Positions 12,439-32,000 of a stretch of DNA of 32,000 nucleotides are shown here, piece after piece. Where the stretch lies: positions 2,820,001-2,852,000 of the forward strand of contig OY776328.1 in assembly GCA_963675515.1 (NCBI GenBank). Reading direction: 5' to 3'. Within the stretch, counting starts at the first letter, position 1; each line of letters begins with the position of its first letter. The position numbers were made by a program, and so were the translations under genes. Origin of the DNA: Coprobacillaceae bacterium. GTDB taxonomy: Bacteria > Bacillota_I > Bacilli_A > Erysipelotrichales > Coprobacillaceae. The notes under the pieces are model-generated. The model was given only the letters and a program-made list of their open reading frames with translations, did no database searches and had not been told where the DNA came from.

Positions 12439-12457
12439 TTATCCAATCCTCCTTAAA

Positions 12458-12823: not shown

Positions 12824-12835
12824 ATTTTCCTCCTA

Positions 12836-12949: not shown

Positions 12950-12970
12950 CTTGCTTCCTCCTAGTACTTA

Positions 12971-13192: not shown

Positions 13193-13204
13193 ATTAACTC
13201 CTTA

Positions 13205-14598: not shown

Positions 14599-14613
14599 TG
14601 ACGCCTCCTACAA

Positions 14614-15897: not shown

Positions 15898-15898
15898 T

Positions 15899-16339
15899 TT
15901 AGATCACCTCGGTTTTACCACCAGCAGCTTCGATTGCAGCGATCGCTGATTTAGAGAATTTGTTTGCTTGAACTGTTAAAGCTTTTTCTAACTCACCGTT
16001 ACCTAAGATTTTAACACCAGCCAATTCTTTCTTAACCAATCCTGCTTCTTTTAAAGTTTCAATAGTAACAACACTGTTTGCATCGAATTTGTTTAAAGAT
16101 TCAACATTAACGATTGCATATTCTTTACGGTTGACGTTAGTGAATCCACGTTTTGGGATACGCATGAATAAAGGTGTTTGTCCCCCTTCGAATCCAGGTT
16201 TTTTCAAACCACCTGAACGAGAAGATTGTCCTTTTTGTCCTTTACCGGCAGTTTTACCAGTACCAGAACTAGTTCCGCGACCAATACGTTTTCTAGCTTT
16301 ACGAGAACCTTCAGTGTATTGTAATTCATGTAATTTCAT
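15899..16339 (-). CDS. rplO: 50S ribosomal protein L15
   Basis: [34 protein letters not shown] is a uL15 match. Confidence 0.98.
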
Positions 16340-16350
16340 CAGTACACCTC

Positions 16351-16533
16351 CTAATTTTCTTCAACTTTTACAAGGTGTTTAACAACATTGATCATACCTT
16401 GAGTATAAACATTGTTTTGTTTAACAACTGTTTTGTTTAATTTAGTTAATCCTAACGCTTGAAGAGTTGCCCTTTTTTTAGGTTTTTGACCAATCGGACT
16501 TTTAACAAGCGTGATACTTAATTTTTCTGCCAT
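16351..16533 (-). CDS. rpmD: 50S ribosomal protein L30
   Basis: [29 protein letters not shown] is a uL30 match. Confidence 0.97.
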
Positions 16534-16545
16534 TAATATGTCCTC

Positions 16546-17103
16546 CTAACCGTAAATCTCTTGAACAGTTTTGTCTCTTAAGCTAGCAACTTCTTCAACT
16601 GTTTTTAATGAGCTTAAACCTTCAACAGTAGCTCTAACCATGTTGATTGGAGTTCTTGATCCTAATGATTTAGATAAGATATCTGTGTAACCTGCCAATT
16701 CGACAACCGCACGAACAGGTCCCCCAGCGATGATTCCAGTACCGGCAGAAGCAGGTTTCAAGAATACATTCCCTGATTTGAACTGACCATTGATTTCATG
16801 AGTGATTGTTCCCTTAACCATTGGTACAGTGATCAAGTTGCGTTTTGCGTTTTCAATTGCTTTACGGATTGCATCAGGTACTTCGTTAGCTTTACCAGTT
16901 CCAAAACCAACTCGTCCTTTTTTATCACCGATAACTACCAACGCCGCAAATCTCATTTTACGACCACCTTTTACTACTTTGGTGATACGGTTAATAGTTA
17001 CTACACGTTCTTCAAATTCTTTTTCTTCTCTTCTAGGTCTATTTCTTGAATTTTTGCGAGTTCTTCTAGGACCACTAGACTCTCTTGGCTTACGTTCTTC
17101 CAT
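16546..17103 (-). CDS. rpsE: 30S ribosomal protein S5 (with Arg/Lys-rich N-terminal extension)
   Basis: [27 protein letters not shown]...[13 protein letters not shown] is a uS5 match. Confidence 0.98.
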
Positions 17104-17115
17104 AGTTGACCTCCT

Positions 17116-17472
17116 TTAGAATTTTAATCCAGCTTCTCTAGCAGCTTCTGCTAAAGCTTTAACACGACCATGATAAACATATCCTCCACGGTCAAATACT
17201 ACATTTTCAACACCAGCGGCTTTAGCACGTTCTGCGATTGCAGTACCTACTTGAGATGCAGCTTGGATGTTGCTACCATTTTCTAATTTCATATCAACGC
17301 TAGATGCGCTAGCTAAAGTCACACCGTTAACATCATCGATGATTTGGGCATGGATATGAGCGTTAGAACGGAACACGTTTAAACGTGGGCATGAAGCTGT
17401 TCCAGATATTTTTCTACGAATACGGGCATGTCTTTTAAGACGGTTTCCGTTACGTGATAATTTTTTTGCCAT
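17116..17472 (-). CDS. rplR: 50S ribosomal protein L18
   Basis: [37 protein letters not shown] is a uL18 match. Confidence 0.98.
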
Positions 17473-17498
17473 TATGTAAGCTCCTTTCCTTTAGCTAA

Positions 17499-18044
17499 CT
17501 ACTTCTTACCAGCAGTTTTTCCTTCTTTTCTGATGATCTTTTCATCAACGTAGCGAATCCCTTTACCTTTGTAAGGTTCAGGTTTACGGTAAGATCTAAT
17601 AACCGCTGCAACTTGTCCAACGCGTTCTTTAGAAATTCCTGATACGATGATTTTTGTGTTTGTTGGGGTTTCTACAGTAATTCCTTCTTCAACTACCATC
17701 TCAATTGGATGAGAGTAACCTAAAGCAAGGTTCAATGCATTGCCCTTCATTTGAGCACGGTACCCGATCCCTACGATTTCAAGTTCTTTTTTGAAGCCTT
17801 CGCTACATCCTTGAATCATATTCGCAAGTAAAGCTCTAGTTGTTCCGTGCAATTGTTTTACACGTTTGATTTCACTGCTTCTTTTAACAGTGATTACACC
17901 ATCTTCGATTTCCATTGAAATAGATGGATCAAATTGTCTAGTTAATGTTCCTTTAGGTCCTTTAACAGTTACTTCGTTATTTGCAGCAACTTCTACAGTG
18001 ACACCTTCAGGAATGTTAATAATTTTATTACCGATACGAGACAT
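17499..18044 (-). CDS. rplF: 50S ribosomal protein L6
   Basis: MSRIGNKIINIPEGVTVEV...LEIVGIGYRA is a uL6 match. Confidence 0.98.
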   Translation of the reverse strand: MSRIGNKIINIPEGVTVEVAANNEVTVKGPKGTLTRQFDPSISMEIEDGVITVKRSSEIKRVKQLHGTTRALLANMIQGCSEGFKKELEIVGIGYRAQMKGNALNLALGYSHPIEMVVEEGITVETPTNTKIIVSGISKERVGQVAAVIRSYRKPEPYKGKGIRYVDEKIIRKEGKTAGKK

Positions 18045-18064
18045 CGTTTAACCTCCTGTTTTCC

Positions 18065-18460
18065 TTACCAAATATATGCAAGGACTTCTCCACCAACTTG
18101 TTTAGCGCGTGCTTCTTTGTCAGTGATAACCCCTTGTGAAGTTGATACAACAACGATTCCTAAACCGTTCAATACTTTAGGAATTTCATTTACTTTAGCA
18201 TAAACACGTAATCCTGGTTTAGAAATACGTTTTAAGTCAGTAATTACTCTTTCATTTCCTCTGTATTTTAAAGCAATATTGATATTTTTAGAGGCACCTT
18301 CGCCCTCAACTTTAAAACCTTTTACGAACCCTTCATTAACTAAAATTTGAGCGATTTCTTCTTTAATTTTAGAGTAAGGAATAGCCACATCATCATGACG
18401 TTGTCTATTCGCATTACGGATTCTTGTTAGCATATCTGCAATTGGATCTGTCATTACCAT
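18065..18460 (-). CDS. rpsH: 30S ribosomal protein S8
   Basis: [17 protein letters not shown] is a uS8 match. Confidence 0.98.
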
Positions 18461-18496
18461 TGCTTAAATCCTCCTTCCACGAATTCTTTCTAATTT

Positions 18497-18682
18497 TTAC
18501 CAGCTTGCTTTTTTAACGCCTGGAATTTCACCTTTGTACGCTAGCTCGCGGAAACAAATACGACAAAGTTTAAATTTACTGATTACCGAGTGTGGTCTAC
18601 CACAACGTTCGCAACGTGTATACTCACGTACTTTGTATTTTTGAGGACGTTGTTGTTTAACCTTCATTGATGTTTTAGCCAT
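18497..18682 (-). CDS. rpsZ: 30S ribosomal protein S14, type Z (zinc-binding, 61 aa)
   Basis: [41 protein letters not shown] carries the CxxC...CxxC motif. Confidence 0.98.
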
Positions 18683-18699
18683 TGATTGTACAACCTCCG

Positions 18700-19239
18700 T
18701 TATTTTTGGAATGGCATTCCTAATTGAGCCAATAATTCGCGACCTTCGTCGTCATTTTCAGCTGTAGTTACGAATACGATATCCATCCCTCTGATTTTAT
18801 TTACTTTATCAAAGTCAATTTCTGGGAAGATTAATTGTTCTTTGATACCTAATGTATAGTTACCTCTACCATCAAATGCGTTTCTAGATACACCTCTGAA
18901 GTCTCTTACACGTGGTAAAGAAACACTCACCAATTTATCCAAGAATTCATACATTTTATCGGCACGCAAAGTTACTTTACACCCGATAGGTGCACCTTCA
19001 CGTAATTTGAAACCTGCAATTGATTTTTTTGCTTTTGTGATTACTGGTTTTTGTCCAGTGATTAATGTTAATTCAGCCACAGCGTCTTCTAATAATTTAG
19101 AATTATTTACCGCATCTCCAACACCAACGTTTAAAACGATTTTTTCAAGTTTTGGTGCTTGCATTGTTGAAGAATAATTGAATTTTTCCATTAATGATTT
19201 GATTACTTCGTTATTATAACGTTCTTGTAAACGATTCAT
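18700..19239 (-). CDS. rplE: 50S ribosomal protein L5
   Basis: The start [12 protein letters not shown] at 19239 has GGAGGAG upstream. The longer ORF-track start would overlap rplX. The ORF is a uL5 match. Confidence 0.97.
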
Positions 19240-19261
19240 TATAGCTCCTCCTTCCAACAAT

Positions 19262-19585
19262 CTAAATTTCTGTTCCTGTTGCTTTGTTAACACGAACTTT
19301 TACTTTTTTACCATCAGTTTCAGTCACTTTATAACCTAACTTAACTGGTTTTTTAGCCTTCTTATCGTAGTATGCTACATTAGAAACATGAATTGGAGCT
19401 TCTCTTGTAATAATACCACCTTCAGGGTCAGTTTGTGATGGTTTGACATGTTTAGTTACCATGTTCACACCTTCAACGATTACGCGATCTTCTTTAGCAA
19501 GAACTTGTAACACTTCACCTTGTTGACCTTTGTCTTTACCTGCGATTACTTCGACAGTATCACCTACGCGGATTTTCAATGTCAT
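19262..19585 (-). CDS. rplX: 50S ribosomal protein L24
   Basis: [22 protein letters not shown] is the KOW motif, a uL24 match. Confidence 0.98.
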
Positions 19586-19594
19586 GTCCTCCTA

Positions 19595-19963
19595 TTATAA
19601 TACTTCTGGAGCCAAAGATACGATTTTCATGAAGTCAGCATCTCTCAACTCTCTTGCTACTGGTCCAAAGATACGAGTTCCTTTTGGAGACTTGTCATCT
19701 TTGATAATTACACAAGCATTGTCATCGAACTTGATGAAAGAACCGTTTTGACGTCCTACACCGTATTTAGTTCTTACGATAACAGCTTTTACTACATCAC
19801 CTTTTTTTACAGAACCACCAGGGATGGCTTGTTTTACTGTACAAACGATAATATCACCGATATTACTTGTTTTTCTATTTGAACCACCTAAATTGCGGAT
19901 TACTAATACTTCTTTGGCACCAGTATTGTCAGCTACTTTAAGTCTACTTTCATTTTGAATCAT
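19595..19963 (-). CDS. rplN: 50S ribosomal protein L14
   Basis: [22 protein letters not shown] is a uL14 match. Confidence 0.98.
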
Positions 19964-19990
19964 TTAGGCTACCTCCTTTTTCTAGAGTTC

Positions 19991-20251
19991 TTATACGATA
20001 TCTGCTTTTTTAACGATTTCCACTAAACGGAAACGTTTTGTTGCAGATAAAGGTCTTGTTTCCATGATTTTAACAGTATCACCGATGTTAGCAGTGTTGT
20101 TTTCATCATGAGCTTTGAATTTAGTTGAACGTTTAACACGTTTGCTGTAAAGTTTATGTTTTACGTGAGTTTCAACCAGCACTGTAATGGTTTTATCCAT
20201 TTTAGATGATACAACAGTTCCAGTATAAACTTTTCTTGCGTTTCTTTCCAT
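19991..20251 (-). CDS. rpsQ: 30S ribosomal protein S17
   Basis: [34 protein letters not shown] is a uS17 match. Confidence 0.98.
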
Positions 20252-20265
20252 TTGTATCTCCCTAA

Positions 20266-20460
20266 TTAACCTTGAAGTTCTCTTTCTCTAATGATTGTTT
20301 TGATTCTTGCGATAGATTTACGAACTTCTTTAATACGTGCTGTATTTTCTAATTGCCCTGTAGCTTGTTGGAATCTCAAACCGAACAATTCAGTTTTGAA
20401 TTCTTCAACCTTAGCCATCAATTGAGCATTGTCTAACTCTTTGATTTCTTGTACTGTCAT
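20266..20460 (-). CDS. rpmC: 50S ribosomal protein L29
   Basis: [35 protein letters not shown] is a uL29 match. Confidence 0.97.
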
Positions 20461-20462
20461 AA

Positions 20463-20873
20463 TTATTCACCCTTTCCAATGATTTTACATTTAATAGGTA
20501 ATTTATGAGAGGCAAGTCTTAAAGCTTCTCTAGCAACTTCTTCGTCTACACCGGCTACTTCGAACATTACGCGGCCAGTCTTAACTACAGCTACCCATTC
20601 TTCTGGTGAACCTTTCCCAGATCCCATACGCACTTCTAAAGGTTTTTTAGTTTTAGCTAAGTGAGGGAAGATACGGATCCAAACTTTTCCGCCACGTTTC
20701 ATGTAACGGTTGATTGCGATACGGGCAGCTTCAATTTGACGTGAAGTGATCCAAGCACCTTCTTGAGCCGCTAATCCGAACTCACCGAATGATACTTTAG
20801 TTCCGCCTTTTGATTTACCTTCATATTTAATTCTATGTGGTCTTCTATATTTCGTTCTTTTAGGCATCAACAT
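20463..20873 (-). CDS. rplP: 50S ribosomal protein L16
   Basis: [14 protein letters not shown]... is a uL16 match. Confidence 0.98.
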
Positions 20874-20875
20874 AA

Positions 20876-21529
20876 TTATTTAGCCTCCTTTTTCTTTTCA
20901 GGAAGGATTTCACCTTTACAGATCCAAACTTTAACTCCTAATTTCCCATAAGTTGTATCTGCTTCAGCTGTAGCGTAATCAATGTCTGCTCTTAAAGTAT
21001 GTAAAGGCACGTTACCTTCGCTGTATCCTTCAGCACGAGCCATGTCAGCTCCACCCAAACGACCTGAAACGTTAGTTTTGATTCCTTTAGCTCCGGCTCT
21101 CATCGCACGTTGAATTGCACGTTTTTGCACAGTTCTGAATGATGCACGGTTTTCTAATTGTTCCGCGATACTGTTAGCCACCAATTGAGCGTTAATATCT
21201 GGATTTTTGATTTCAACGATATTGATAAATACTTGTTTTCCATCAGTCATAGTAGTGATTTCTTTACGTAATTTATCAACAGCTTCACCTTCTTTACCGA
21301 TGACAACACCTGGTCTAGAAGTGTGAACGATTATTGTAACTCGTTTTTTAGATCTTTCGATCTCAACACGAGCCACACCCGCTCTTTTTAGTTTGTTTAA
21401 GATAAAAGCACGGATTTTGATATCTTCATGTAATAAAGTTGCGAATTCTTGATCGTTGGCATACCATCTAGAATCCCAATTACGGTTAACACCAACGCGT
21501 AAACCAACTGGACTTACTTTTTGACCCAT
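20876..21529 (-). CDS. rpsC: 30S ribosomal protein S3
   Basis: [24 protein letters not shown] is a uS3 match. Confidence 0.98.
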
Positions 21530-21540
21530 ATGTCAACCTC

Positions 21541-21873
21541 CTATCTTTCAGCTACCACAGCAGTGATGTGGCTTGTTCTTTTTAAAATTCTAGTTCCGCT
21601 ACCTTTTGCTCTTGCAGCGAATCTTTTCAATGTTGGACCTTCGTTAACACAAATTTCTTTGATATATAAATTGGCTTCATCTGCACCGTCGTTGTTTACA
21701 ACGTTAGCTGCAGCTGATTTAACTACTTTAATGATTGCAGGAGTTGCACTTTTGTTCATGTATTCCAAGATACCAAGTGCTTCTTTTAAATCCTTACCTC
21801 TAACTAAGTCAGCGACCAAGCGGGCTTTTTGAGGTGAAACACGAATCATTTTAGCTGTTGCTTTTGCTTCCAT
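21541..21873 (-). CDS. rplV: 50S ribosomal protein L22
   Basis: AKMIRVSPQKARLVADLVRGK is a uL22 match. Confidence 0.98.
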   Translation of the reverse strand: MEAKATAKMIRVSPQKARLVADLVRGKDLKEALGILEYMNKSATPAIIKVVKSAAANVVNNDGADEANLYIKEICVNEGPTLKRFAARAKGSGTRILKRTSHITAVVAER

Positions 21874-21892
21874 GTATAATTCTCCTCCCTAA

Positions 21893-22171
21893 TTATCTTT
21901 TCTTACCTGATTTGTCAGCGTCATGACCAAGGTAAGTTCTAGTTGGAGCGAATTCTCCCAACTTGTGTCCTACCATGTCTTCGCTAACGTAAACCGGAAT
22001 ATGTTCTCTTCCGTTATAAACTGCGAATGTATGTTCGATAAATGTAGGGAAGATTGTTGAACGTCTTGACCAAGTTTTGATCACTTCTTTTTTACCAGCC
22101 GCATTTAATGCTTCAACTTTTTTCATTAAATGTTCATCGACAAATGGTCCTTTTTTTAAGCTACGTGCCAT
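21893..22171 (-). CDS. rpsS: 30S ribosomal protein S19
   Basis: [19 protein letters not shown]...[12 protein letters not shown] is a uS19 match. Confidence 0.98.
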
Positions 22172-22188
22172 TATTTTCTTCCTCCTTA

Positions 22189-23022
22189 TTATTTCTTGTT
22201 ACGACGTCTTACGATTAATTTGTTAGATGCTTTTTTACTGTTACGAGTTTTAACACCCATAGCTTTTTTACCCCAAGGAGTCATTGGAGCTTTACGACCG
22301 ATAGAAGTTCTACCTTCCCCACCACCATGAGGGTGATCGTTAGGGTTCATTACCGAACCACGAACTGTAGGGCGGATCCCTTTCCATCTCATACGACCTG
22401 CTTTACCGTAGTTTACCAAGCTGTAGTCTTCATTTCCAACCACACCGATAGTAGCGCGGCAAACCGCCAGGATTTTACGAACTTCGCCAGAAGCCAATCT
22501 TACGATTACATATCTGTCTTCTTTACCAAGGATTTGGGCTGACACACCTGCTGAACGCGCGATTTGTCCACCTTTACCAGGTTGAAGTTCGATGTTGTGG
22601 ATTACTGTACCTTCAGGGATGTTTGCAAGCGGCATAGCGTTTCCGACTAAGATATCCACGTTTTCGCCAGATACGATAGTGTCTCCGACTTTCATTCCTT
22701 TAGGTGCTAAGATATATCTTTTTTCACCATCTACATAGTTGATCAATGCGATGTTTGCAGATCTGTTTGGATCATATTCGATAGTTGCTACTTTACCTGG
22801 GATGTTGTCTTTGTTACGTTTGAAATCGATTAAACGATATTTACGTTTGTGACCACCACCGTGATGTCTTGTAGTGATAACACCTTGGTTATTACGCCCA
22901 CCTTTTTTAGATAAGCTCACAACTAAAGATTTTTCTGGTTTGTTTGTTGTAATTTCTTCATATGTCAATGAAGTCATGTTACGACGACCATTTGTTACTG
23001 GCTTGTATACTCTAATTGCCAT
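22189..23022 (-). CDS. rplB: 50S ribosomal protein L2
   Basis: [14 protein letters not shown]...[14 protein letters not shown] is a uL2 match. Confidence 0.98.
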
Positions 23023-23080
23023 TCTCTAGTTCCTCCTCTTTAATTATCTGGAATGAGTTATTCCAATATTGTTGTTTGGA

Positions 23081-23368
23081 TTATTCTCCAAATAGATTGA
23101 TTTCGCTACCTGCAGCCAATTTTACGATGGCTTTGCGGCGACGGTTTGTTTTACCTTCGTAACGTCCAACGCGTTTTGTTTTAGGTTTGACGTTCATTAC
23201 GTTTACTGAAGCGACTTTCACATTGAACATTTTTTCTACTGCGCTTTTGATTTCGATTTTGTTTGCAGTAACTTCCACGTCAAATGTATATTTGTTTTCT
23301 TCAGCCATTAATCTCATTGATTCTTCTGTAAGTACTGGTTTTTTTAATACGTCAGTAATGTGTGCCAT
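23081..23368 (-). CDS. rplW: 50S ribosomal protein L23
   Basis: [14 protein letters not shown]...KYTFDV...KAIVKL is a uL23 match. Confidence 0.97.
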
Positions 23369-23988
23369 TATCCAAGTACCTCCTCAACTGCTTTGATTGC
23401 TGCTTCTGTCATGATCAATTGGTTGCTGTTTAAAACATCATAAACGTTTACACGTCTTGCATCCAAGATTTTCAAACCTGGGATGTTGTTTGCTGATCTT
23501 GCAACGTTTTCGTCGATTTCATCAACAACGATCAATGTTTTTGCAGGAGCCTGTAAGTTTTCCAAAACTTTAACCATGTCCTTGGTTTTTGGAGCTTCGA
23601 ATGAAATTCCATCAATTACCATGAATTCCGCATCTTTAACTTTAGTAGATAACGCAGATTTTAAAGCCAATCTTCTGACTTTACGATTTAATTTGAATGT
23701 ATATGATCTTGGTGTTGGTCCGAATACAACTCCACCACCACGCCATTGTGGCGCACGGATTGAACCTTGACGAGCACGTCCAGTTCCTTTTTGACGCCAT
23801 GGTTTTTTTCCACCACCGGCAACTTCAGTACGGTTTTTAACTTTGTGAGTTCCTTGTCTTAAAGAAGCTCTTTGAAGTAAAACCATGTCGAAGATAGCTT
23901 GGTTGTTTGGTTCAATATTAAAGACAGCTTCGTTCAATTCGATATCTTTAACTTCAACACCTTGTTGGTTTAATACCTTAACTTGCAT
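23368..23988 (-). CDS. rplD: 50S ribosomal protein L4
   Basis: [34 protein letters not shown] is a uL4 match. Confidence 0.98.
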
Positions 23989-24005
23989 TATGTATCTCCT
24001 TTCTG

Positions 24006-24713
24006 TTATTCTGCAGCTTCAGTAGCTTCTGTATTTTCTTCAACTGCAGGAGTATAGTCAACTAAAGCTTGAGCTTCGTTAATTTTCCCATTTCCTTTAA
24101 CCGCTGATCTTACAACCACTAAACCTTTTTTAGGTCCAGGGATTGAACCTTTGATTAATAATAAGTTGTTTTCAACATCAACTGCCACAACTTCCAAGTT
24201 TTGAACAGTTCTGGTTACATGTCCCATTTGCCCAGGTAATTTTTTACCAGGAGCGATTCTGTTTGGAGCGATTGGTCCCATTGAACCTACGATACGATGA
24301 GCTCCAGAACCATGTCCTTTAGGACCGATTTTTTGGCCATGTCTTTTAATAACACCTTGATAACCTTTACCTTTAGAAGTTCCTTGAACATCTACAACTT
24401 CACCTGCTACGAAGCTATCAACAGCGATTTTATCTCCAACTTCATAACCCATCATTTCGTCATAACGAAATTCTTTGATGAAGCGCTTAGGAGCAGTTTG
24501 TGCTTTAGCGAAAATACCTTGTTCCGCTTTGTTTGCTAATTTTTCTCTTTTGTCTTCAAAACCAACTTGGATAGCATCATAGCCATCTGTTGCTGTTGTT
24601 TTCTTTTGTAGAACAACGTTTGCGTTTGCTTCTACAACTGTAACTGGAATTAATGTTCCTTCTTCATTGAAGACCTGAGTCATTCCGATCTTACGACCTA
24701 AGATTCCTTTCAT
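24006..24713 (-). CDS. rplC: 50S ribosomal protein L3 (with acidic C-terminal tail)
   Basis: [15 protein letters not shown]...[12 protein letters not shown] is a uL3 match. Confidence 0.98.
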
Positions 24714-24732
24714 GAGTTACACCTTTGCCTTT

Positions 24733-25041
24733 CTATAATTTGATTTCGATGTCTACACCACTTGGTAAGTCCAAACGAGTCAATACATCAACTGTTTCTG
24801 GTGTAGGGTTCACAATGTCAATTAATCTCTTATGAGTTCTGATTTCGAATTGTTCACGAGAATCTTTGTATTTGTGAACAGCTCTTAAGATAGTATAAAC
24901 TTCCTTTTGAGTTGGAAGAGGTACTGGACCTACTACTTGAGCACCTGATTTTTTAGCAGATGAAATAATTTTTTCTGCCGAAGAATCCAGGATTTTGTGA
25001 TCAAATGCCTTTAGTCTAATTCTAATTTTGTTGTTTGCCAT
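24733..25041 (-). CDS. rpsJ: 30S ribosomal protein S10
   Basis: [21 protein letters not shown]...[13 protein letters not shown] is a uS10 match. It is the first gene of the S10 operon, with SD AAAGGAGA upstream. Confidence 0.98.
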
Positions 25042-26644: not shown

Positions 26645-27553
26645 ATGTCTTTGCTTACAATTGTCGGAGGGATTGAATTGGGGTTGATCTTTTCAATCCT
26701 TTCCTTAGGTTTATATATTGCATTCCGGATTCTTGATCTTCCGGATCTGACTGTCGATGGTTCGTTCGTCACAGGCTTGGCCATTTCGGGGGTTTTGGCC
26801 CAACAGAATCATCCCTATCTTGGGATATTGCTTGCGGTGATAGGCGGAGCCCTGGCAGGTATCGTAACCGGCTTGTTGCATACCAAGCTCAAAATCCAGG
26901 CGATCCTGGCTGGAATTCTTACAATGACGGCCTTATACTCGATAAATCTTATCATCCTTGATGAAAAACCTACGGTCATGTTTTTCGGACAGGAAACAAT
27001 GTTCAGTTTTTCCAATGGCTTATTGATAATCAACGGGGTTGATATCTCCAAAGGAGTTGTCCTTTTGGTTATAAATATCCTGGTTGTCGCCTTGATGATC
27101 TACTTCCTGAACACCAAAATCGGGTTGTCTCTTAGAGCTACCGGTGACAATGAGGTCATGGTCCGTTCTTCTTCAATCAATACCGACCTGATGAAAGTTA
27201 TCGGTTTTGGCCTGACCAACGCCTTGGTGGCTTTAAGCGCTGCAATCTATGTCCAATACAACCAGCAGGGTTCATATACCGTCGGCAATGGAATGCTGGT
27301 GTTGTCATTGGCTTCGATCATTATCGGCGAGGCTTTGATAGGCAACAAGACAATACTTCGAAACCTTGTGGCAATTGTCCTGGGGTCGATTGTATACCGG
27401 CTTGCCTTGACCTATTCATTTCAACTGGGATTGCCCTCAAGTTACCTGAAATTGTTCAGCGCCCTGATCGTAGTATTCGCAATCTTTTTACCGCAGGTCA
27501 AATCGATATATCAAAATTACCGAAAGAGAGTCAACCATGTTAGAGGTCAGTAA
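26645..27553 (+). CDS. ABC transporter permease partnering the PF04392 binding protein
   Basis: The 302-aa polytopic ORF (LGLYIAFRILDLPDLTVDGSFVTG, RATGDNEVMVRSSSIN) lies immediately downstream of the binding protein. It overlaps the ATPase start by 17 nt. Confidence 0.88.
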   Translation: MSLLTIVGGIELGLIFSILSLGLYIAFRILDLPDLTVDGSFVTGLAISGVLAQQNHPYLGILLAVIGGALAGIVTGLLHTKLKIQAILAGILTMTALYSINLIILDEKPTVMFFGQETMFSFSNGLLIINGVDISKGVVLLVINILVVALMIYFLNTKIGLSLRATGDNEVMVRSSSINTDLMKVIGFGLTNALVALSAAIYVQYNQQGSYTVGNGMLVLSLASIIIGEALIGNKTILRNLVAIVLGSIVYRLALTYSFQLGLPSSYLKLFSALIVVFAIFLPQVKSIYQNYRKRVNHVRGQ

Positions 27554-28055
27554 AGTAAATGTAATTTTCAATCCCGGTACCATCCATGAAAAGCACGCCC
27601 TCAAGGATATCGATTTTGTCCTGAATGACGGCGATTTCGTGACCATCATCGGTTCCAACGGTGCTGGCAAATCAACTCTGTTCAACGCAATTTCAGGGAA
27701 TGTTGAAGTCAGCGATGGCACAATCAAAAACAACGGGGAGATAATCACATACCTTAAGGACTACAAGCGGGCCAGGTTCATCGGACGTTTGTTCCAGGAT
27801 CCATTCCAAGGAACGGCACCGAACCTTTCAATAATCCAGAATCTCGGTTTGGCCTATTCCCGAGGTAAGAAACAAAGTCTGGCGTTGGCCATTTCCAAGA
27901 AGGACCGTCAATATTTTTATGAAGTCCTCAAAAAGCTCGACCTGGGGCTCGAACAAAGGATGGACACTCCGGTGCGGCTGCTTTCGGGCGGGCAGCGCCA
28001 GGCCCTTACGCTTCTTATGGCAACCATAGGGAAGGATCTGATTTTTTTCCTTTAA
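27537..28055 (+). CDS. ABC transporter ATP-binding protein, 3'-truncated (ends just after the signature motif, no Walker B/H-loop), probably non-functional as encoded
   Basis: Walker A GSNGAGKST, Q-loop LFQDP, signature LSGGQRQALTLLMATI, then 8 unrelated codons and TAA. It is 172 aa, whereas my recollection is that this family is about 250-260 aa. Confidence 0.85.
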   Translation: MLEVSKVNVIFNPGTIHEKHALKDIDFVLNDGDFVTIIGSNGAGKSTLFNAISGNVEVSDGTIKNNGEIITYLKDYKRARFIGRLFQDPFQGTAPNLSIIQNLGLAYSRGKKQSLALAISKKDRQYFYEVLKKLDLGLEQRMDTPVRLLSGGQRQALTLLMATIGKDLIFFL

Positions 28056-28889
28056 GAAAGTTGCCCCGGTAGAACTGTTTTTCCGTTCCCGGACTGATGC
28101 CTATCAGACGTGATGTGTAAAGCTCTTCTCCCTTCCGTGGTGCCGCAATGGTTTGAGTTCTTACATCCACGGTGCCGGGACCCGTAAAGAATACGGTTCT
28201 GCTTGTTATAGGCTTTATACCTTCCGGCTTTACCAAATGCCAGCACACTTCGTTGCCTATTATTTTAATTTCTTTGACCCGGGGCTGTAAGGCCTGGGAA
28301 AGTGACTCTATCCCCATCTCACCGAAAGAAGGGATTCCGGCTCCGAAAATTTTAACAGCCGATACGATTATCATTTCATCCCATAGATTTTTTTTTGTAA
28401 AAGATGTCAATATGGTAGAACCGCCTTCGACCATGACACTCTCAATTCCCATATTCTCAAGTTCTTTCAGAATTTTCTCCAGGTCGAGAAATCCGTCACT
28501 GCCGGCGGGAACATCCTTTACAATTATGTTTCTGTTCTCCAGTTTTTCAATCCGTCGGCAAGGGATGCCTTTTCGGCTTTCCGGCTGTTATAGAAAATAA
28601 GAGTCTTAATATCCCGGGACGTCCGGGCTATCTTTCCATCCAGGGGCATCCTGAGAGAGGAGTCCAGTATGACCCTCATGGGGCTTTTCTCAGGATCTAT
28701 GCGGCAGGTCAGCAAAGGATCATCGCATATAACCGTACCGATACCTACAATGATGGCATCGTGATTCCTGCGGAGATCCTGATTCAGCTTAAGACTGCCT
28801 TCCTCACTTATATACCTGGATTCTCCATTGGTAGTGGCAATTTTTCCATCCAGGGTCTGGGCAAATGTTAAAGTGACAGGTTTAAGCAT
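28015..28889 (-). pseudogene. RibD C-terminal-domain (DHFR-fold pyrimidine reductase-like) gene with a frameshift near 28551-28560. It reads in frame into an N-terminal fragment of an MDR/zinc alcohol-dehydrogenase-like protein that is cut off at the ~28.03 kb junction.
   Basis: ORF 28524-28889 reads LTFAQTLDGKIATTNGESRYIS...DAIIVGIGTVICDDPLLTCR...PMRVILDS. The family continuation RIEKLENRNIIVKDVPAGSDGFLDLEKILKELENMGIESVMVEGGSTILTSF is in the -1/+2 frame, which is open over 28015-28587. Further on, TVFFTGPGTVDVRTQTIAAPRKGEELYTSRLIGISPGTEKQFYRG resembles an MDR N-terminus. Confidence 0.75.
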
Positions 28890-28892: not shown

Positions 28893-29731
28893 TTAAGGAT
28901 ATACTCCTTCATATCTGAAAACAAGTTTATAATACCCTGACACCCTTAACTGCTGAAGGAGCAGCAGGGTACCCCCCCCGATAATATTATCCAGTGCCGG
29001 GGACTGCAGGGGCAGCTGGGTGAGAAGCTGTAAATACAGGCCTCTAAGGAGGGGGCTCAACAGGGGCCTTTTCATTTGGGACGTAAGATCTGTCATATTG
29101 CAGAGGACAAAACCATTTTTCTTGAGAATGCTTATAAACTTGCTGACAGAGGTGAATCCATGGGCGTGCCAGTGCTTTTTAAACCTTCTTACCAGTCTTT
29201 TTTCCCTCTTTCCGGGTGTTATTCCATCAATTAAGAAATCATCAATGATCTGTATATGTGATCCCTTGTTCACAATTTTAAAAGATTGCTGATAAGCATT
29301 TCATGGTCGGGATTATGCTGAAGGCTTTCAATGGCAAAGATGAAATCAAAGGCTCCTTTATTCTCAAACCATGAGGAATCCAGATAGCTGCCGAGCTCCA
29401 CGGGTATATTCTGTTCCATTGCGATCCTGTATTGGACGGGGCTCAAAGTGATACCTGTATAATCCCCTTCGTAGCGGCTCCTCAGGTAGCTGATACTGCC
29501 CCCCACACCGCAGCCGAGATCCAGGATTCTCCGGGCTTCCGTCTCTCTGATCATATCGAGAACCAAAGCATCCGAGATATGGGCCGGGTCATGAGACCCG
29601 TCCTGTTCTTCAGGGTAGAGTTTTCGGTGAATGGTTCCGGAAGACTTTTCCGGAACAAAGCGGAGGAACCGGGCCGTGTTCTTATTATAGTAACGGGCCA
29701 CCTCACTTTCTGCAGTTTTAAAGGCGGACAT
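28893..29731 (-). pseudogene. Class I SAM-dependent methyltransferase split by a frameshift within 29270-29300 (T4A4 run at 29274-29284)
   Basis: ORF 29270-29731 carries motif I RILDLGCGVGGSISYL and post-I YTGITLSP. ORF 28893-29273 has only a GTG start and continues the fold as (K)IVNKGSHIQIIDDFL. The two ORFs overlap by 4 nt in different frames. Confidence 0.7.
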
Positions 29732-29822
29732 ACTAATATTCTAGTCTTAAAGCTGCCAGTTTACGAATTGTTCCTGATTTATCATTGGACAAGGGCAGAT
29801 GGGGATAGTTATAATTTAGACA

Positions 29823-31343
29823 ATGTACCTTTTTCACCGGATTAACACAAACTGGCTGCCCCGTGTCTCTTTATTCCTCATTCTATTAACAATTTTGAGC
29901 AACTACCGGTATGTCCCGGGCAGTAACTTTTATCTTGGCATCCTGCCGGCAGTTTTCCTTATTGTAATTTTTTACGGACTTTCAACTGTATTAAAGGACA
30001 GTGGTGTAAACTTCAGTGAGTTTTACCGGCGTCCTGCCAATATTGCCACACTTGTCAGAAGCCTGCTGGTTCTGGCGGGGCTTGTCTGCGGGGCACTCTG
30101 GCTGACCGGCGGATTCTCCTTGTATAAATGGTTTTCTCTCATTTTTATAAGTTTGGGATATGGGGCGGATTTTCTGGACGGCTGGCTGGCTCGGCGTGAG
30201 AAAGTCAAACCGCCGGCGGCGGAGTGGGGTGCCTGGTATGATGCTGAAACAGACGCTCTCTTATTGCTTATAAGCGGTATTTTTATAACGTATTTTACAG
30301 AGATTACCCCGCTTCTGCTTCTACCCGGTCTGTTCCGGTATATATTCGGGCTCCTATTCTGGTTTTTCCCCTCGGATTATGATCCTCCCGTGTGGTATTT
30401 CTGGTATTCCAAGACCATTGCCGCAATTTTTGAAACTGTCATGGCAGTTCTCTGGTGTACAATCCTGCTCAAGGAAAGCTCTGGTTTTATGAAGGCCTTC
30501 CTGACCATACAGATCAGAGTTTTTATTCCTCTGATAACTCTGCTTATCCTGTCAAGCTTTATTGTGGAATCCCATTACAGGGCGGCATCCCTACTCAACA
30601 GGGTGCCCGCGGGTTTTCGTTGGGGAATTTTCCGCTCTTTCATTATCTATTACAGAATCCCTTTCCGTTATGGAAAGATGAAGAAATTCTACAGCAGACT
30701 CATCAATTCCAGGGACCTGGTTTTTGATGTGGGAGCTCATCTGGGTAACCGGACCAGAACCTTTCTTGATCTGGGTGCATATGTCGTAAGCTTTGAACCA
30801 CAGCCGGCATGCATCGGGCTCCTTGATCTCTGGTTTGGATCTCACGAGAACGCACAGCAAAGCTACTGCGCTCTGGGGGCAAACAAGGGCAATGTGGAAA
30901 TGCTGCTCTCAAGCCGGAACCCCACACTTGCCAGTACTGATTCTAAATGGGTAAGTGAAATGCTCAGCCACCCCGAATTTCAGGGAATAGAATGGGATGG
31001 CCGCTGCAGGACAGAAGTGCATACCCTTGATGAAATGATTGATAAATTCGGTATGCCGAAGTTTATAAAGATTGATACTGAAGGAAATGAAGGGAAAGTC
31101 CTGAAAGGGCTCAGCAGTGCAGTCGCCCTTATAAGTTATGAGTTTCTTCCCTCCCAGAAAAACCGGGCGAAAGAGTGCATCACCAGGCTTTCCCGTCTGG
31201 GAAAGTACTTCTTTAATTATTCCATTGGAGAATCCATGAAAATGGCCCTCAAAGATGCGCTTAGTGCCGAAGAAATGACAGCTCTTATTGATTCCTATCC
31301 CCAGGAGGGGAAGAGCGGAGATATTTATGCCTTCCTTCAATAA
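29823..31343 (+). CDS. Fusion protein: polytopic CDP-alcohol phosphatidyltransferase domain (N) + FkbM-family SAM methyltransferase domain (C)
   Basis: N-terminal half: several hydrophobic segments and the signature DFLDGWLAR-x11-GAWYDAETD (DxxDGxxAR...GxxxDxxxD). C-terminal half: VFDVGAHLGNRTRTF...VVSFEPQP...PKFIKIDTEGNEGKVLKGL (Methyltransf_21/FkbM hallmarks). It is one uninterrupted 506-aa ORF. Confidence 0.8.
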   Translation: MYLFHRINTNWLPRVSLFLILLTILSNYRYVPGSNFYLGILPAVFLIVIFYGLSTVLKDSGVNFSEFYRRPANIATLVRSLLVLAGLVCGALWLTGGFSLYKWFSLIFISLGYGADFLDGWLARREKVKPPAAEWGAWYDAETDALLLLISGIFITYFTEITPLLLLPGLFRYIFGLLFWFFPSDYDPPVWYFWYSKTIAAIFETVMAVLWCTILLKESSGFMKAFLTIQIRVFIPLITLLILSSFIVESHYRAASLLNRVPAGFRWGIFRSFIIYYRIPFRYGKMKKFYSRLINSRDLVFDVGAHLGNRTRTFLDLGAYVVSFEPQPACIGLLDLWFGSHENAQQSYCALGANKGNVEMLLSSRNPTLASTDSKWVSEMLSHPEFQGIEWDGRCRTEVHTLDEMIDKFGMPKFIKIDTEGNEGKVLKGLSSAVALISYEFLPSQKNRAKECITRLSRLGKYFFNYSIGESMKMALKDALSAEEMTALIDSYPQEGKSGDIYAFLQ

Positions 31344-31908
31344 ACTGAAAAGACCCCTCTCTGTCGTTCTTCTTGTGCATTTTCTTTTTGCTTCCTACCG
31401 CCTTTTTCCGCTTATACAGAATTACCAGCCCCTTAGTTTTTTTATCCCCATGGGAGAACTTCTTATTCTCATTGTTATTATGAACGGCAGGAATCACCGG
31501 CTTCTGAGAAGCACTGCTTCCCTGCTTCTGCTGTCATTTCTCATGTTTTATCTCTCGGGAGAGCTTTTTTTCAGGCTTATCTATCTTGAAAGCTTTGATA
31601 TGATTTCAGACATGAAATTTATTCCCGGTTTATTTGTCATGCTGATGCCGGAAGGATTTCTCTCTGTGGAAACCATAAGGGCCGGGGCAGTCCTGCTAAC
31701 AGTTCTTCTGACTCTGTTAACAGCCTCTCTCCTGTTCTCTGCCATTCGAAAGCATTCGGGTATAACGGTACTGTCCCTCAATACTCCGGTAAAAATACTG
31801 ATTACCATGGCGGCTGCTTCACTTATGATTTTTTCCCCCGCTGATTCCCCCCTGCTGATGACCAGGCGGGATTATAGGCCGCCGGTCTTTATATGCCGAT
31901 CAAAGTGA
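31327..31908 (+). CDS. Polytopic membrane protein of unknown function, possibly the N-terminal membrane module of a larger protein
   Basis: The start MPSFNKLKRPLSVV at 31327 has GGAG about 10 nt upstream and overlaps the previous gene by 17 nt. There are four to five hydrophobic segments. I recognised no catalytic motif. Confidence 0.6.
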   Translation: MPSFNKLKRPLSVVLLVHFLFASYRLFPLIQNYQPLSFFIPMGELLILIVIMNGRNHRLLRSTASLLLLSFLMFYLSGELFFRLIYLESFDMISDMKFIPGLFVMLMPEGFLSVETIRAGAVLLTVLLTLLTASLLFSAIRKHSGITVLSLNTPVKILITMAAASLMIFSPADSPLLMTRRDYRPPVFICRSK

Positions 31909-32000
31909 GGCCTCTTTTCTCAGTAAAATACCTGATGAACAGCCTGTATCCCTGCAGAACATAGCAGTTCCGGTTGAGGAAATCAAAGAGCCGGAGTGGG

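Follow-up and report, generated by a model that had tools for sequence, protein, structure and literature searches.

The window analysed here, a stretch of 32,000 nucleotides of Bacillota DNA, carries an intact gene whose product is a true two-module membrane protein, predicted from its sequence and its structural model to join a CDP-alcohol phosphotransferase to an FkbM-type methyltransferase in a single chain. The two halves of this fusion exist as separate genes, side by side, in a conserved cluster of 9 to 11 genes found in at least eight phyla, and the gene in the window is probably the recently orphaned remnant of such a cluster that has decayed.

The fusion protein and its two halves

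The fusion gene occupies positions 29823..31343 of the + strand and encodes 506 amino acids from an ATG start, the same single open reading frame that an initial annotation of this DNA had given, and its assignment draws on Pfam and NCBIfam matches, an alignment of homologs and an AF2 model. The two domains named in that annotation are borne out by a Pfam profile search, in which PF01066 (CDP-OH_P_transf) matches amino acids 72-222 with 29.6 bits against a curated cut-off of 22, and PF05050 (Methyltransf_21) matches amino acids 302-436 with 50.5 bits against a curated cut-off of 22.7; the NCBIfam profile TIGR01444 (fkbM_fam) adds a score of 72.6 bits against a cut-off of 37.7. AlphaFold modelling, which had been proposed as a check, yields one confident chain (pLDDT 92.5, pTM 0.85), and a Foldseek comparison of the whole model with the PDB returned generic class I methyltransferases only, with no informative two-domain match. 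The motifs also lie where they had been placed: DFLDGWLARREKVKPPAAEWGAWYDAETD at 30168-30254, VFDVGAHLGNR ending at 30752, and IKIDTEGNEGKV at 31065-31100. An alignment of 22 sequences (the fusion ORF and 21 homologs) contains 43 invariant columns, and the motif residues of both catalytic signatures are invariant throughout, so that the description of both signatures as intact holds. The fusion ORF departs from its family at none of the 43 invariant positions and at 2 of 67 highly conserved ones; relaxed constraint is not evident, and the gene could thus still work, with partners elsewhere in the 2.9-Mb genome. A consensus scan identifies a promoter-like site, TGGACA-18-TATAAT, at 29786..29815 on the + strand (11/12, ending 8 nt before the ATG), which is only suggestive because the number of such sites in the region is not above shuffled expectation.

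The membrane half (amino acids 1-262; 29823..30608, + strand) has eight predicted transmembrane helices, at residues 6-26, 34-57, 71-96, 99-124, 133-155, 163-181, 190-219 and 221-260 of the AF2 model, an arrangement that is predicted to comprise two extra N-terminal helices followed by the six-helix core of the CDP-OH transferases. From the model, together with hydropathy and the distribution of lysine and arginine, we infer an N-in/C-in topology, in which the K/R-rich loops and tail fall on the active-site side of the membrane, and the signature is carried by helices 99-124 and 133-155 with the K/R-rich loop 125-132 flanking it. This signature, D116-x2-D119-G-x2-A-R-x11-G136-x3-D140-x-E142-x-D144 (30168..30254, + strand), reads D116FLD119GWLAR-x11-G136AWYD140AETD144 in translation and fits the family signature D-x2-D-G-x2-A-R-x(7-12)-G-x3-D-x3-D. 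D116, D119, G120, G136, D140, E142 and D144, as well as R79 and R172, are invariant in the 22 homologs, and the D-x-E-x-D variant is present in the split orthologs too. The spacer between AR and G is, as had been noticed, longer than the canonical 8 residues, at 11; since this loop ranges from 7 to 23 residues among homologs (8 in the split orthologs), we regard it as a variable loop and no defect. The best solved relative of the membrane half is PgsA (7drj; E 3.8e-8), and the PgsA equivalog profile TIGR00560 scores the fusion ORF at 15.2 bits against a cut-off of 109.1. Judged by sequence, the membrane half is PgsA-like, yet not PgsA.

The halves meet in a junction of two basic/aromatic helices (amino acids 263-291; 30609..30695, + strand) that corresponds to the N-terminus of the standalone FkbM orthologs. 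These align from about residue 266 of the fusion ORF, all of them start with interfacial basic/aromatic helices, and the one from the split-gene locus L045 begins MRPDLAASLGMARSLLIYYGQ; the junction residues G268, Y276, P280 and Y290 are invariant in the 22-sequence alignment. The FkbM-type class I SAM methyltransferase domain follows at 30696..31340 on the + strand, recognised by PF05050 and TIGR01444 and by the motifs VFDVGAHLGNR, FEPQP and KIDTEGNE. Its invariant residues among the 22 homologs are D302, G304, H306, G308, R310, E325, P326, K416, D418, E420 and G421. The SAM motif DVGAHLG and the acidic FEP are likewise invariant, the AF2 model shows an alternating beta/alpha fold over residues 299-505, and Foldseek returns class I methyltransferases for this half.

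Fused and split homologs and the conserved cluster

The same fusion, with a conserved junction, is carried by about 36-39 cluster representatives (50% identity) among 1.84 billion proteins, and 35 matches were collected, of which more than 20 are full length with both Pfam domains. These proteins are divergent (30-60% identity) and come from independent assemblies. Those with a named source are, among the matches listed, all from Spirochaetota, the GTDB scan having been seeded in the FkbM half and so under-sampling fused forms. A spirochaete origin of the window was considered on that account and rejected, as its SecY is 76-77% identical to that of Thomasclavelia and [Clostridium] saccharogumia (Erysipelotrichaceae). 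Literature searches yielded no characterised enzyme of this architecture, in agreement with the initial annotation, and no description of either the architecture or the cluster. The architecture is rare but present in databases, where its only label is 'FkbM family methyltransferase'.

Fused and split forms have in common the D-x-E-x-D, RYxF and C-terminal SFxx(D/E) signatures. At loci L045 and L026 the CDP-OH gene precedes the FkbM gene, in the order seen in the fusion and with overlapping stop and start codons, and the split cluster is also found in the RefSeq annotation of Peteryoungia. The FkbM orthologs form a distinct subfamily with about 40% identity across phyla. These sequence comparisons indicate that the fusion ORF arose by the joining of two adjacent, translationally coupled genes, and the physical coupling of phosphotransfer and methylation that had been suggested is plausible because the halves adjoin as overlapping genes, in the same order, in other phyla.

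Two alternative accounts of the fusion itself deserve consideration. The initial annotation had named a lost stop codon as a case that would undo it, and such an artefact, in which a lost stop or an indel merged two adjacent genes in this assembly, draws some credence from the frameshifts in nearby genes and from the separate, overlapping state of the halves in other phyla, where one indel could join them. More than 35 divergent fused proteins from independent assemblies nevertheless have the conserved junction, which rules out the artefact for the family, and for the window protein we consider it exceedingly improbable, as AF2 renders one confident chain and other genes of the window are full length. 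The membrane half might otherwise be a mere anchor, a pseudo-enzyme that tethers the FkbM domain while a separate enzyme performs phosphotransfer. An arrangement of this kind is suggested by L010, in which the fused N-terminal membrane half lacks D-x2-DG...D-x3-D and the locus also has a separate, intact CDP-OH gene, and about ten long representatives align through the FkbM half alone; it is quite improbable for the protein described here, since the window protein and its 21 homologs all retain the motif residues, R79 and R172, and loci L001-L006 have no second CDP-OH gene.

The conserved cluster is distributed over Spirochaetota, Pseudomonadota, Cyanobacteriota, Chloroflexota, Acidobacteriota, Actinomycetota and Bacteroidota, to which this window adds Bacillota. 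It contains a RibA-type GTP cyclohydrolase II (GCH-II), a RibD_C reductase, a polyol-dehydrogenase-like protein and a PTPS-like protein, together with a glycosyltransferase of the GT4 family, additional methyltransferases and a membrane transferase of LtaS-like type (SULF); an MprF-type flippase domain or a cytochrome b561 is present in some versions as well. At FkbM-ortholog loci of at least 15 kb (n=57, among the matches listed) a CDP-OH gene is present in 30, SULF in 28, U325 plus PTPS in 26, and both modules in 20, and about half of the FkbM-ortholog loci, again among the matches listed, have no partner inside 10 kb. The Nostoc clusters contain the head-group genes and FkbM with no CDP-OH or SULF gene found within 10 kb, so that the FkbM step may act on a soluble intermediate. 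Other cluster parts are also found fused: RibA with RibD_C in Nostoc, RibD_C with the dehydrogenase in L002, L004, L006 and the window, and CDP-OH with SULF as a single ORF at L071. Translational coupling also links SULF to the fusion gene, and in L001-L003 an MFS gene comes after SULF. No cytidylyltransferase was found in the examined clusters, which favours a housekeeping CDP donor.

Individual members depart to differing degrees from their best-known relatives; approximate E. coli RibA, QueD and PgsA sequences served as references. The cluster RibA exceeds the equivalog cut-off, and Tyr105 and the zinc cysteines are retained in 25/25 cluster copies, the RibD_C reductase scores 134.7 bits, just under the cut-off of 150.15 for the riboflavin-type domain TIGR00227, and U325 resembles polyol dehydrogenases. 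The PTPS-like protein keeps the ring-binding Glu, lacks the catalytic Cys in 36/36 cluster copies, and has the third zinc His replaced by Ala in the SCO6650-like subtype; it scores far under the cut-offs of TIGR00039 and TIGR03367 and does not have the full catalytic residue set of a PTPS or QueD. In SULF orthologs (n=16) ESYG, SPT, SSHxP and GDHQ are invariant. The only PDB relative of SULF is the lipoteichoic acid (LTA) primase LtaP (4uop), a weak match (E 0.0056) with catalytic motifs aligned, and among the orthologs that from Rhizobium alone exceeds the cut-off of the Pfam Sulfatase profile (29 against 25). The MprF-type transmembrane domain PF03706 reaches 148 bits and occurs in 12-13 loci. 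PimB', MshA and BGluT score alike against the cluster GT4, whose similarity is generic; a specific tie to the pterin glucosyltransferase BGluT (E 1.9e-9) was considered and rejected, as this match is no better than those to PimB', MshA and GlgA. An Rfam search of the window and 12 loci found no riboswitch, one tRNA being the sole match.

Decayed partners in the window

The genes neighbouring the fusion had been described as frameshifted, and comparison with orthologs by tblastn, together with frame-by-frame reading, shows this to be so. A SULF pseudogene (31327..32000, + strand) starts within the end of the fusion gene and runs off the window; it matches orthologs over amino acids 1-184 of 536, with a frameshift at ~31870-31908 beyond which the reading goes on in a different frame ('VEEIKEPEW', where the orthologs have 'QDQEPEW'). 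The divergent neighbour of the fusion gene is a pseudogene for a CMAS-like class I methyltransferase (28893..29731, - strand), which consists of two ORFs of 153 and 126 amino acids with Pfam Methyltransf_23/25/11 matches and has one frameshift at ~29273-29279, where the alignment to 275-amino-acid orthologs passes from frame -2 to frame -1. Equating this CMAS-like protein with the 'second class I MTase' of the proteobacterial clusters was rejected, as both co-occur in L029 and L075. Beyond it lies the remnant of a fused RibD_C reductase/polyol-dehydrogenase-like gene (28027..28889, - strand), recognised by tblastn, by Pfam RibD_C in both fragments and by custom HMMs, with a frameshift at ~28554-28584 and an end at residue ~290 of 545.

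This remnant abuts an ABC-transporter ATPase gene (27537..28055, + strand; 172 amino acids, PF00005 positions 1-130 of 137) that is cut before Walker B, has no continuation in any frame, and represents a boundary scar outside the system. The two genes are convergent and each is missing its 3' end, a pattern that one deletion would produce, and neither repeats nor IS scars were found at the deletion junction. In all, the window has three partner genes with frameshifts, one of which has also been shortened by a deletion, and lacks the remaining cluster genes. As the frameshifted neighbours are pathway partners, the pathway in this genome is broken, and the fusion ORF is probably an orphan. Composition gives no signal of a horizontally acquired island, GC3 being 0.48-0.57 in the cluster and 0.54-0.65 in ordinary neighbours.

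A candidate pathway and its relation to known systems

It is about an even call, in our judgement, that the cluster makes a GTP-derived, glycosylated and methylated head group on a CDP-diacylglycerol-derived phospholipid that is later flipped, the fusion in this genome having been orphaned from that route. In such a pathway RibA would open GTP to give 2,5-diamino-6-ribosylaminopyrimidinone 5'-phosphate, the ribosyl chain would be reworked by the RibD_C reductase together with the polyol-dehydrogenase-like enzyme fused or adjacent to it, and the PTPS-like T-fold protein and GT4 would complete the head group, a glycosylated polyol of aminopyrimidine or pterin-like type. The phosphotransferase half would couple this head group at the cytoplasmic face to phosphatidyl from CDP-diacylglycerol, and the fused methyltransferase, on the same face, would O-methylate the lipid-bound head group. 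A flippase (the MprF-type transmembrane domain in alphaproteobacteria, perhaps the MFS protein in fused-type clusters) would then carry the lipid outward, and the LtaS-like partner would pass the phospho-head group to an envelope acceptor. We infer CDP-diacylglycerol as the donor for the fusion protein by analogy, and likewise its acceptor and methylation site. The lipid reading is based on PgsA as the best solved relative, the LtaS-family relative of SULF, the MprF-type domain and the coupling of SULF, and the proposed GTP-derived head group on the RibA, RibD_C, U325 and PTPS-like features of the cluster.

Some members of the CDP-OH family take soluble CDP-alcohols, DIPP synthase being an example, and the product of the cluster could instead be a GTP-derived metabolite that stays soluble and is exported by the MFS protein, for example a methylated pterin or pyrimidine glycoside phosphodiester whose phospho-alcohol the CDP-OH enzyme would take from a soluble CDP-alcohol. 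The Nostoc version without membrane enzymes and the MFS gene after SULF in L001-L003 are in keeping with this, and cyanobacteria are known for pterin glycosides (PMC13259868). The missing cytidylyltransferase, the closeness to PgsA, the conservation of the MprF-type lipid-flippase domain and the LtaS-like enzyme as partners, and the interfacial helices at the start of all FkbM orthologs argue against it, and we consider it unlikely. A more conventional account would have an ordinary phospholipid with a standard head group (PC, PE or PG-like) made and methylated independently of the GTP-derived genes, given that the CDP-OH family includes PC, PS and PG synthases and that the divergent CMAS-like neighbour has a fold common to phospholipid N-methyltransferases. 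The PgsA equivalog score lies far below its cut-off, however, the co-occurrence with RibA, RibD_C, PTPS and GT4 persists across phyla and through gene rearrangements, and FkbM-family enzymes are not known to act as phospholipid N-methyltransferases, so that this account is highly improbable.

Extending the GTP-derived phospholipid reading, the cluster may, as a rather doubtful possibility, encode an unrecognised class of envelope molecule, either a phospholipid or an envelope decoration added by phospho-transfer, with a GTP-derived, pterin-like, glycosylated, methylated and redox-active head group, made by a FolE-independent route, attached through CDP-diacylglycerol by the fusion enzyme, flipped, and handed on by the LtaS-like enzyme. 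The route would run from RibA through the RibD_C reductase and the polyol dehydrogenase to the T-fold protein, with the dehydrogenase recreating the 2'-keto intermediate and closing the pterin ring, and the recurrent cytochrome b561, or a NOX-like flavocytochrome, would hold the head group reduced from across the membrane.

By itself the fusion is of modest novelty, both domains belonging to well-known families. Its value is that of a Rosetta stone: a PgsA-like membrane phosphotransferase is linked in it with an FkbM methyltransferase, and conserved neighbourhoods and three more independent fusions tie these halves to the RibA/RibD_C/PTPS-like/GT4 head-group module and the LtaS-like/flippase export module, in organisms from Rhizobiales and Nostoc to Chloroflexota, Actinomycetota and Spirochaetota. 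If the proposal is true, riboflavin- and pterin-type enzymes would have a new use, and the product would be a lipid head group or envelope modification of a new kind, built from GTP. Culturable hosts with an intact cluster include Peteryoungia desertarenae (FE840_RS18590-18640), Rhizobium terrae NAU-18, Neorhizobium huautlense, Micromonospora tulbaghiae and Marispirochaeta aestuarii, and the present genome serves as a cautionary case, in which one intact gene stands alone in a decayed cluster.

The membrane half shares with PgsA (7drj), a CDP-diacylglycerol-glycerol-3-phosphate 3-phosphatidyltransferase, its fold family, D-x2-DG-x2-AR...G-x3-D-x3-D on two adjacent transmembrane helices, the Arg of 'N-x2-T-x2-R' in TM1 and the 'AR' Arg after the motif helices; it differs in the two extra N-terminal helices, the 11-residue AR-to-G loop, the fused methyltransferase, the invariant Glu inside D-x-E-x-D, the C-terminal SFxxE helix and a non-housekeeping context. 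The other half has DVGAxxG, the acidic FEP and KID-x-EG-x-E in common with the FkbM/Methyltransf_21 O-methyltransferases (FkbM of FK506, NoeI and 2py6, the last a weak match at E 0.058), but has an interfacial helix pair and is joined to a membrane enzyme.

At the level of the pathway, the lipoteichoic acid route runs from PgsA, by way of the flippase LtaA, to LtaS, and the cluster resembles it in having a CDP-OH transferase inside, a flippase (MFS or MprF-type) and a putative LtaS-type extracytoplasmic transfer of a phospho-head group. The metal Glu, nucleophile Thr and SSHxP of SULF align with those of the LTA primase, at the marginal similarity given above. Unlike that route, the cluster apparently draws its head group from a dedicated GTP-derived pathway and not from glycerol phosphate, and it is also present in diderm phyla without LTA. 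The mycobacterial PI/PIM operon places the PIP synthase PgsA1 with the GT4 mannosyltransferase PimA, and thus offers a polyol-phosphate CDP-OH transferase beside a GT4 by which the head group is glycosylated; the solved structures that best match the cluster GT4 include PimA, PimB' and MshA. The cluster has no inositol-phosphate synthase, in whose place are RibA, RibD_C, the dehydrogenase and the PTPS-like protein, and it adds methyltransferases and the LtaS-like enzyme.

The PTPS homolog SCO6650 of Streptomyces coelicolor (3d7j) aligns with the PTPS-like proteins from end to end (E 2.5e-5), and the catalytic Cys is missing from it as well. Its LHGAT motif, with the third zinc His lost, is shared with the subtype found in proteobacteria, Nostoc and actinobacteria, whereas the PTPS-like protein of fused-type clusters keeps an H-x-H pair. 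The S. coelicolor GCH-II SCO6655, encoded near SCO6650, carries a Tyr-to-Met switch; the cluster GCH-II keeps Tyr105 in every copy, and an SCO6655-type assignment was rejected. A parallel for covalent joining is IPCT-DIPPS, a bifunctional archaeal cytidylyltransferase/CDP-alcohol phosphotransferase, in which, as in the fusion ORF, a CDP-OH transferase shares its chain with a soluble cytoplasmic enzyme that serves the same pathway. The soluble domain of IPCT-DIPPS is N-terminal and makes the CDP donor, whereas that of the fusion ORF is C-terminal and is a SAM methyltransferase that presumably acts after or beside the transfer.

A membrane transferase fused to a methyltransferase

The fusion gene at 29823-31343 (+) starts with ATG and encodes 506 amino acids, exactly as in the initial annotation, and the single-polypeptide fusion reported there is real. 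Searching 5.8 billion proteins with a word index yielded 35 relatives; more than 20 are full length (476-560 aa, at 31-60% identity) and carry both Pfam domains. When 1.84 billion representatives clustered at 50% identity were scanned exhaustively with HMMER, 443 proteins reached E <= 1e-30. Of the top 150 of these, 36 cover the protein from its membrane half through to the C-terminus, three more are fragments across the junction, and roughly 100 are standalone, ~250 aa long, and align to residues ~266-505.

Both proposed domains score above their Pfam gathering thresholds, PF01066 (CDP-OH_P_transf) at residues 72-222 (29.6 bits against 22) and PF05050 (Methyltransf_21/FkbM) at residues 302-436 (50.5 against 22.7), and with 72.6 the protein also exceeds the cut-off (37.7) of the NCBIfam model TIGR01444 (fkbM_fam). 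By all sequence criteria tested, the protein is thus a predicted member of the CDP-alcohol phosphotransferase (CDP-OH) and FkbM families. PgsA was rejected as its identity, the NCBIfam equivalog model scoring 15.2 against a cut-off of 109.1. The motifs quoted in the initial annotation are located on the plus strand, with the CDP-OH signature DFLDGWLARREKVKPPAAEWGAWYDAETD at 30168-30254, the SAM motif VFDVGAHLGNR ending at 30752, and the FkbM motif IKIDTEGNEGKV at 31065-31100. The AR-to-G spacer had rightly been called long, at 11 residues against the canonical 8; it has the canonical 8 in split orthologs, varies from 7 to 23 among homologs, and judging from these sequences is a tolerated variable loop.

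An alignment of 22 sequences has 43 invariant columns. The invariant residues include the catalytic D116, D119, G120, G136, D140 and D144, together with an extra E142, R79 and R172; S245, F246, G268, Y276, P280 and Y290 at the junction; and D302, G304, H306, G308, R310, E325, P326, K416, D418, E420 and G421 of the SAM/FkbM region. With this alignment as input, AlphaFold2, the modeling check suggested earlier, returned one confident chain (mean pLDDT 92.5, pTM 0.85) with eight long helices through residue 260 and two short ones (263-277, 282-291), after which comes a methyltransferase fold of alternating beta/alpha elements. Hydropathy and K/R distribution predict an N-in/C-in topology with eight transmembrane helices – the canonical six-helix core and two additional N-terminal ones – and put the active-site loop (residues 125-132) together with the tail, rich in Arg and Lys, on the cytoplasmic side; the methyltransferase, whose membrane face had been posed as a question, would therefore be cytoplasmic and beside the phosphotransferase active site. 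A near-consensus sigma-70-like candidate promoter (TGGACA-18-TATAAT, 29786-29815) ends 8 nt upstream of the ATG, such that the transcript would be leaderless or nearly so; the fusion gene and the divergent CMAS-like methyltransferase gene share an intergenic region of only 91 bp.

In the databases the fused proteins carry no label beyond 'FkbM family methyltransferase', and full-text literature searches found no description of the architecture or of its gene cluster, which agrees with the earlier statement that no characterised enzyme of this kind was known.

Two adjacent genes and a recurring cluster

Because its seed lay in the methyltransferase half, a GTDB-wide scan returned mostly a standalone FkbM subfamily; 86 loci among the matches listed were fetched. 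This subfamily is ~40% identical to fusion residues 266-506 and, among the matches listed, is found in Rhizobiales, Rhodobacterales, Burkholderiales, Gammaproteobacteria, Nostoc/Brasilonema, Chloroflexota (Caldilineae), Acidobacteriota (Vicinamibacterales), Actinomycetota and Bacteroidota. A CDP-OH gene directly precedes FkbM, in the same orientation, in eight loci from Rhizobiales and one from Granulosicoccaceae. The FkbM ATG is within the last codons of the CDP-OH gene in locus L045 (ATGCGGCCTGA), and the two genes overlap as ATGA in L026, so that one small indel would yield the fused form. Split and fused forms have in common a Glu in D-x-E-x-D, an RYxF motif and a C-terminal SFxx(D/E) helix, all of which PgsA lacks, and the N-terminus of the standalone FkbM proteins consists of the two interfacial helices that make the junction in the fusion.

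A recurring neighborhood surrounds the fusion homologs, and its genes are met again around the standalone FkbM genes. Profile HMMs built for each neighbor from L001-L006 were searched against six-frame ORFs of the 86 loci, and co-occurrence was counted over the 57 loci that are 15 kb or longer. The CDP-OH half has an ortholog in 30 of the 57, SULF (a ~540-aa LtaS-like membrane protein encoded next after the fusion gene) is present in 28, and the two occur together in 27; a PTPS-like protein and U325 (~325 aa, dehydrogenase-like) occur together in 26, and both modules, membrane and head-group, in 20. A split cluster is annotated in RefSeq for Peteryoungia desertarenae (NZ_CP058351.1), in the order cytochrome b561, RibD family protein, class I methyltransferase, GT4, '6-carboxytetrahydropterin synthase', zinc-binding alcohol dehydrogenase, RibA, CDP-alcohol phosphatidyltransferase, FkbM methyltransferase, lysyl-PG-synthase TM-domain protein and sulfatase. 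Four independent gene fusions link the cluster genes: RibA-RibD_C (Nostoc), RibD_C-U325 (L002, L004, L006, L036 and the window), CDP-OH-FkbM, and CDP-OH-SULF.

Several loci depart from the common arrangement. In a Pseudonocardiaceae MAG (L071, 14829-17513) the CDP-OH transferase and SULF occupy one uninterrupted frame of ~895 codons. Five Nostoc/Brasilonema loci (L023, L025, L033, L040, L053; about 4.4-11.8 kb) hold a RibA-RibD_C fusion (571 aa), U325, PTPS-like and GT4 genes, a 237-aa ORF, FkbM and another class I methyltransferase. In a Spirochaetaceae MAG (L010) the catalytic CDP-OH motif has been lost from the membrane half fused to FkbM (6334-7746), while 5.5 kb away the locus has a second, intact CDP-OH gene (105-806); this natural variant, whose fused half is a pseudo-enzyme anchor, shows that there is selection for tethering the methyltransferase to the membrane as such.

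The partner proteins are recognizable to varying degrees. The GTP cyclohydrolase II passes RibA models (252 bits against 148; 230 against 206) and in 25 of 25 copies keeps the three zinc cysteines and the residue aligned to Tyr105 of the E. coli enzyme, so the canonical product, 2,5-diamino-6-ribosylaminopyrimidinone 5'-phosphate, is expected. RibD_C is a riboflavin-type pyrimidine reductase domain (134.7 bits, slightly below the domain cut-off), and a profile search of the protein found no deaminase domain. U325 resembles medium-chain polyol dehydrogenases (BchC, arabinitol, iditol and galactitol-1-phosphate dehydrogenases). The PTPS-like T-fold protein (for example L001 5850-6248 and L045 8071-8478) lacks the PTPS/QueD catalytic Cys in 36 of 36 copies and retains the ring-binding Glu; one subtype, in fused-type clusters, keeps the H-x-H zinc pair (PHSH), and the other reads LHGAT, as does SCO6650 (PDB 3d7j), itself a full-length PDB match. 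The SCO6650 structure paper, which reportedly describes an inactive PTPS homolog with no function assigned, is the only earlier trace known to us. The GT4 is generic, with PimB', MshA, PimA and the pterin glucosyltransferase BGluT scoring alike.

SULF has invariant ESYG, SPT, SSHxP and GDHQ motifs, and its sole solved relative is an LtaS-family lipoteichoic acid primase (E 0.0056), with which the metal Glu, nucleophile Thr and SSHxP align; in the window and in every fused-type locus the SULF gene begins within the 3' end of the fusion gene, and in the fused-type clusters an MFS gene follows it. An MprF-type flippase domain (PF03706, 148 bits) is present in 12-13 loci and an additional class I methyltransferase in 26. 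Cytochrome b561 is encoded in nine loci (L026, L063, L067, L070, L084, L050, L076, L035, L020) and in L087 (2713-3240), all ten alphaproteobacterial, and the Marispirochaeta cluster has a NOX/ferric-reductase-like flavocytochrome (L001 2815-4128); these recurring transmembrane electron carriers hint at a redox-active product on the membrane's outer face.

Decay and background of the window copy

The neighboring genes are frameshifted, as previously noted: the CMAS-like methyltransferase (28893-29731, -) near 29273-29279; RibD_C-U325 (28027-28889, -) near 28554-28584, stopping at residue ~290 of 545; and SULF (from 31327) near 31870-31908, continuing in another frame. An ABC-transporter ATPase gene (27537-28055), the third of a PF04392/PF02653/PF00005 system, breaks off at a T7 run ahead of Walker B and abuts the truncated, convergent RibD_C-U325 gene at 28027-28060. 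Both genes being cut where they abut is the signature of a single deletion, which appears to have removed their 3' ends and everything between; GCH-II, PTPS-like, GT4 and MFS genes were not found within the window. Ten genes at 870-10606 are full length in Pfam, which argues for local damage and not an assembly-wide error pattern. Relaxed constraint was not seen in the fusion ORF, with 0 of 43 invariant columns changed and two of 67 columns of >=90% conservation changed, both conservatively. The window copy is nevertheless probably an orphan: given about three frameshifts in ~2.4 kb of partner sequence, a Poisson estimate puts the chance of an intact 1.5-kb ORF at roughly 0.15, and intactness alone is no proof of selection.

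SecY is 76-77% identical to those of Thomasclavelia and [Clostridium] saccharogumia and 90-98% to closer relatives, and the order rpoA-rplQ-ecfA-ecfA'-ecfT-truA (rpoA and rplQ being putative assignments) looks Firmicute-like; together these mark the backbone as Erysipelotrichaceae-like. The ribosomal-protein/secY/adk/map/rpoA block, followed by ecfA-ecfA'-ecfT-truA, spans 7413-25041, and GC3 of its genes is 0.21-0.44 against 0.54-0.65 in the other window genes. Consecutive minus-strand ORFs there and adjacent overlap by 82-92 nt (PHP 6542-7504, TruA 7413-8222, EcfT 8141-8941); calling the longest ORF probably set their start codons too far upstream, and the overlaps are not frameshifts since all three proteins are full length in Pfam. 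No Rfam family, tRNA, ribosomal-protein leader and riboswitch included, reached its gathering score in 1-32000. Among the matches listed, all named fused homologs are from Spirochaetota (Marispirochaeta, Salinispira, Spirochaetales MAGs), placing the fusion in at least two phyla; the nearest intact-cluster loci are weakly Spirochaete-like (galactokinase 53% identity, against 50-51% to Ruminococcus). It is plausible that the cluster was gained horizontally and then decayed, but composition gives no support for this.

A possible lipid pathway

The fusion is of value mostly because it exposes a widespread, uncharacterised pathway, a significance tempered by a chemistry that we infer and by the probable orphan status of the window copy. 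What the data do show is its architecture, its conservation, its orthology with the split genes and its gene neighborhood. We place about even confidence in a mechanism in which a GTP-derived head group is put on a phospholipid made from CDP-diacylglycerol, methylated, flipped and passed on outside. The soluble module would convert GTP to a 2-amino-4-oxopyrimidine or pterin-like polyol (phosphate) that is then glycosylated, and the PgsA-like half of the fusion would transfer phosphatidyl from CDP-diacylglycerol to this head group. CDP-diacylglycerol is the suggested donor because no cytidylyltransferase gene was found in the clusters and because PgsA is the best solved relative of the membrane half (E 3.8e-8).

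The main rival, that the product is a soluble methylated glycoside, draws on the five Nostoc/Brasilonema loci, in which CDP-OH and SULF genes were not found within 10 kb, and we consider it unlikely. Quite improbable is a membrane half that serves solely to anchor the methyltransferase: the Spirochaetaceae locus provides a precedent, having a motif-less fused half and a separate intact CDP-OH gene, but the catalytic motif of the window protein is intact. Under the favored lipid mechanism, the fused FkbM domain would act at the same face of the membrane and methylate the head group once it is bound to lipid, the flippase would move the lipid outward, and the LtaS-like enzyme would transfer the phospho-head group to an outside acceptor. 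So arranged, the proposed mechanism mirrors the logic of two established pathways, PgsA-LtaA-LtaS and PIP-synthase-PimA.
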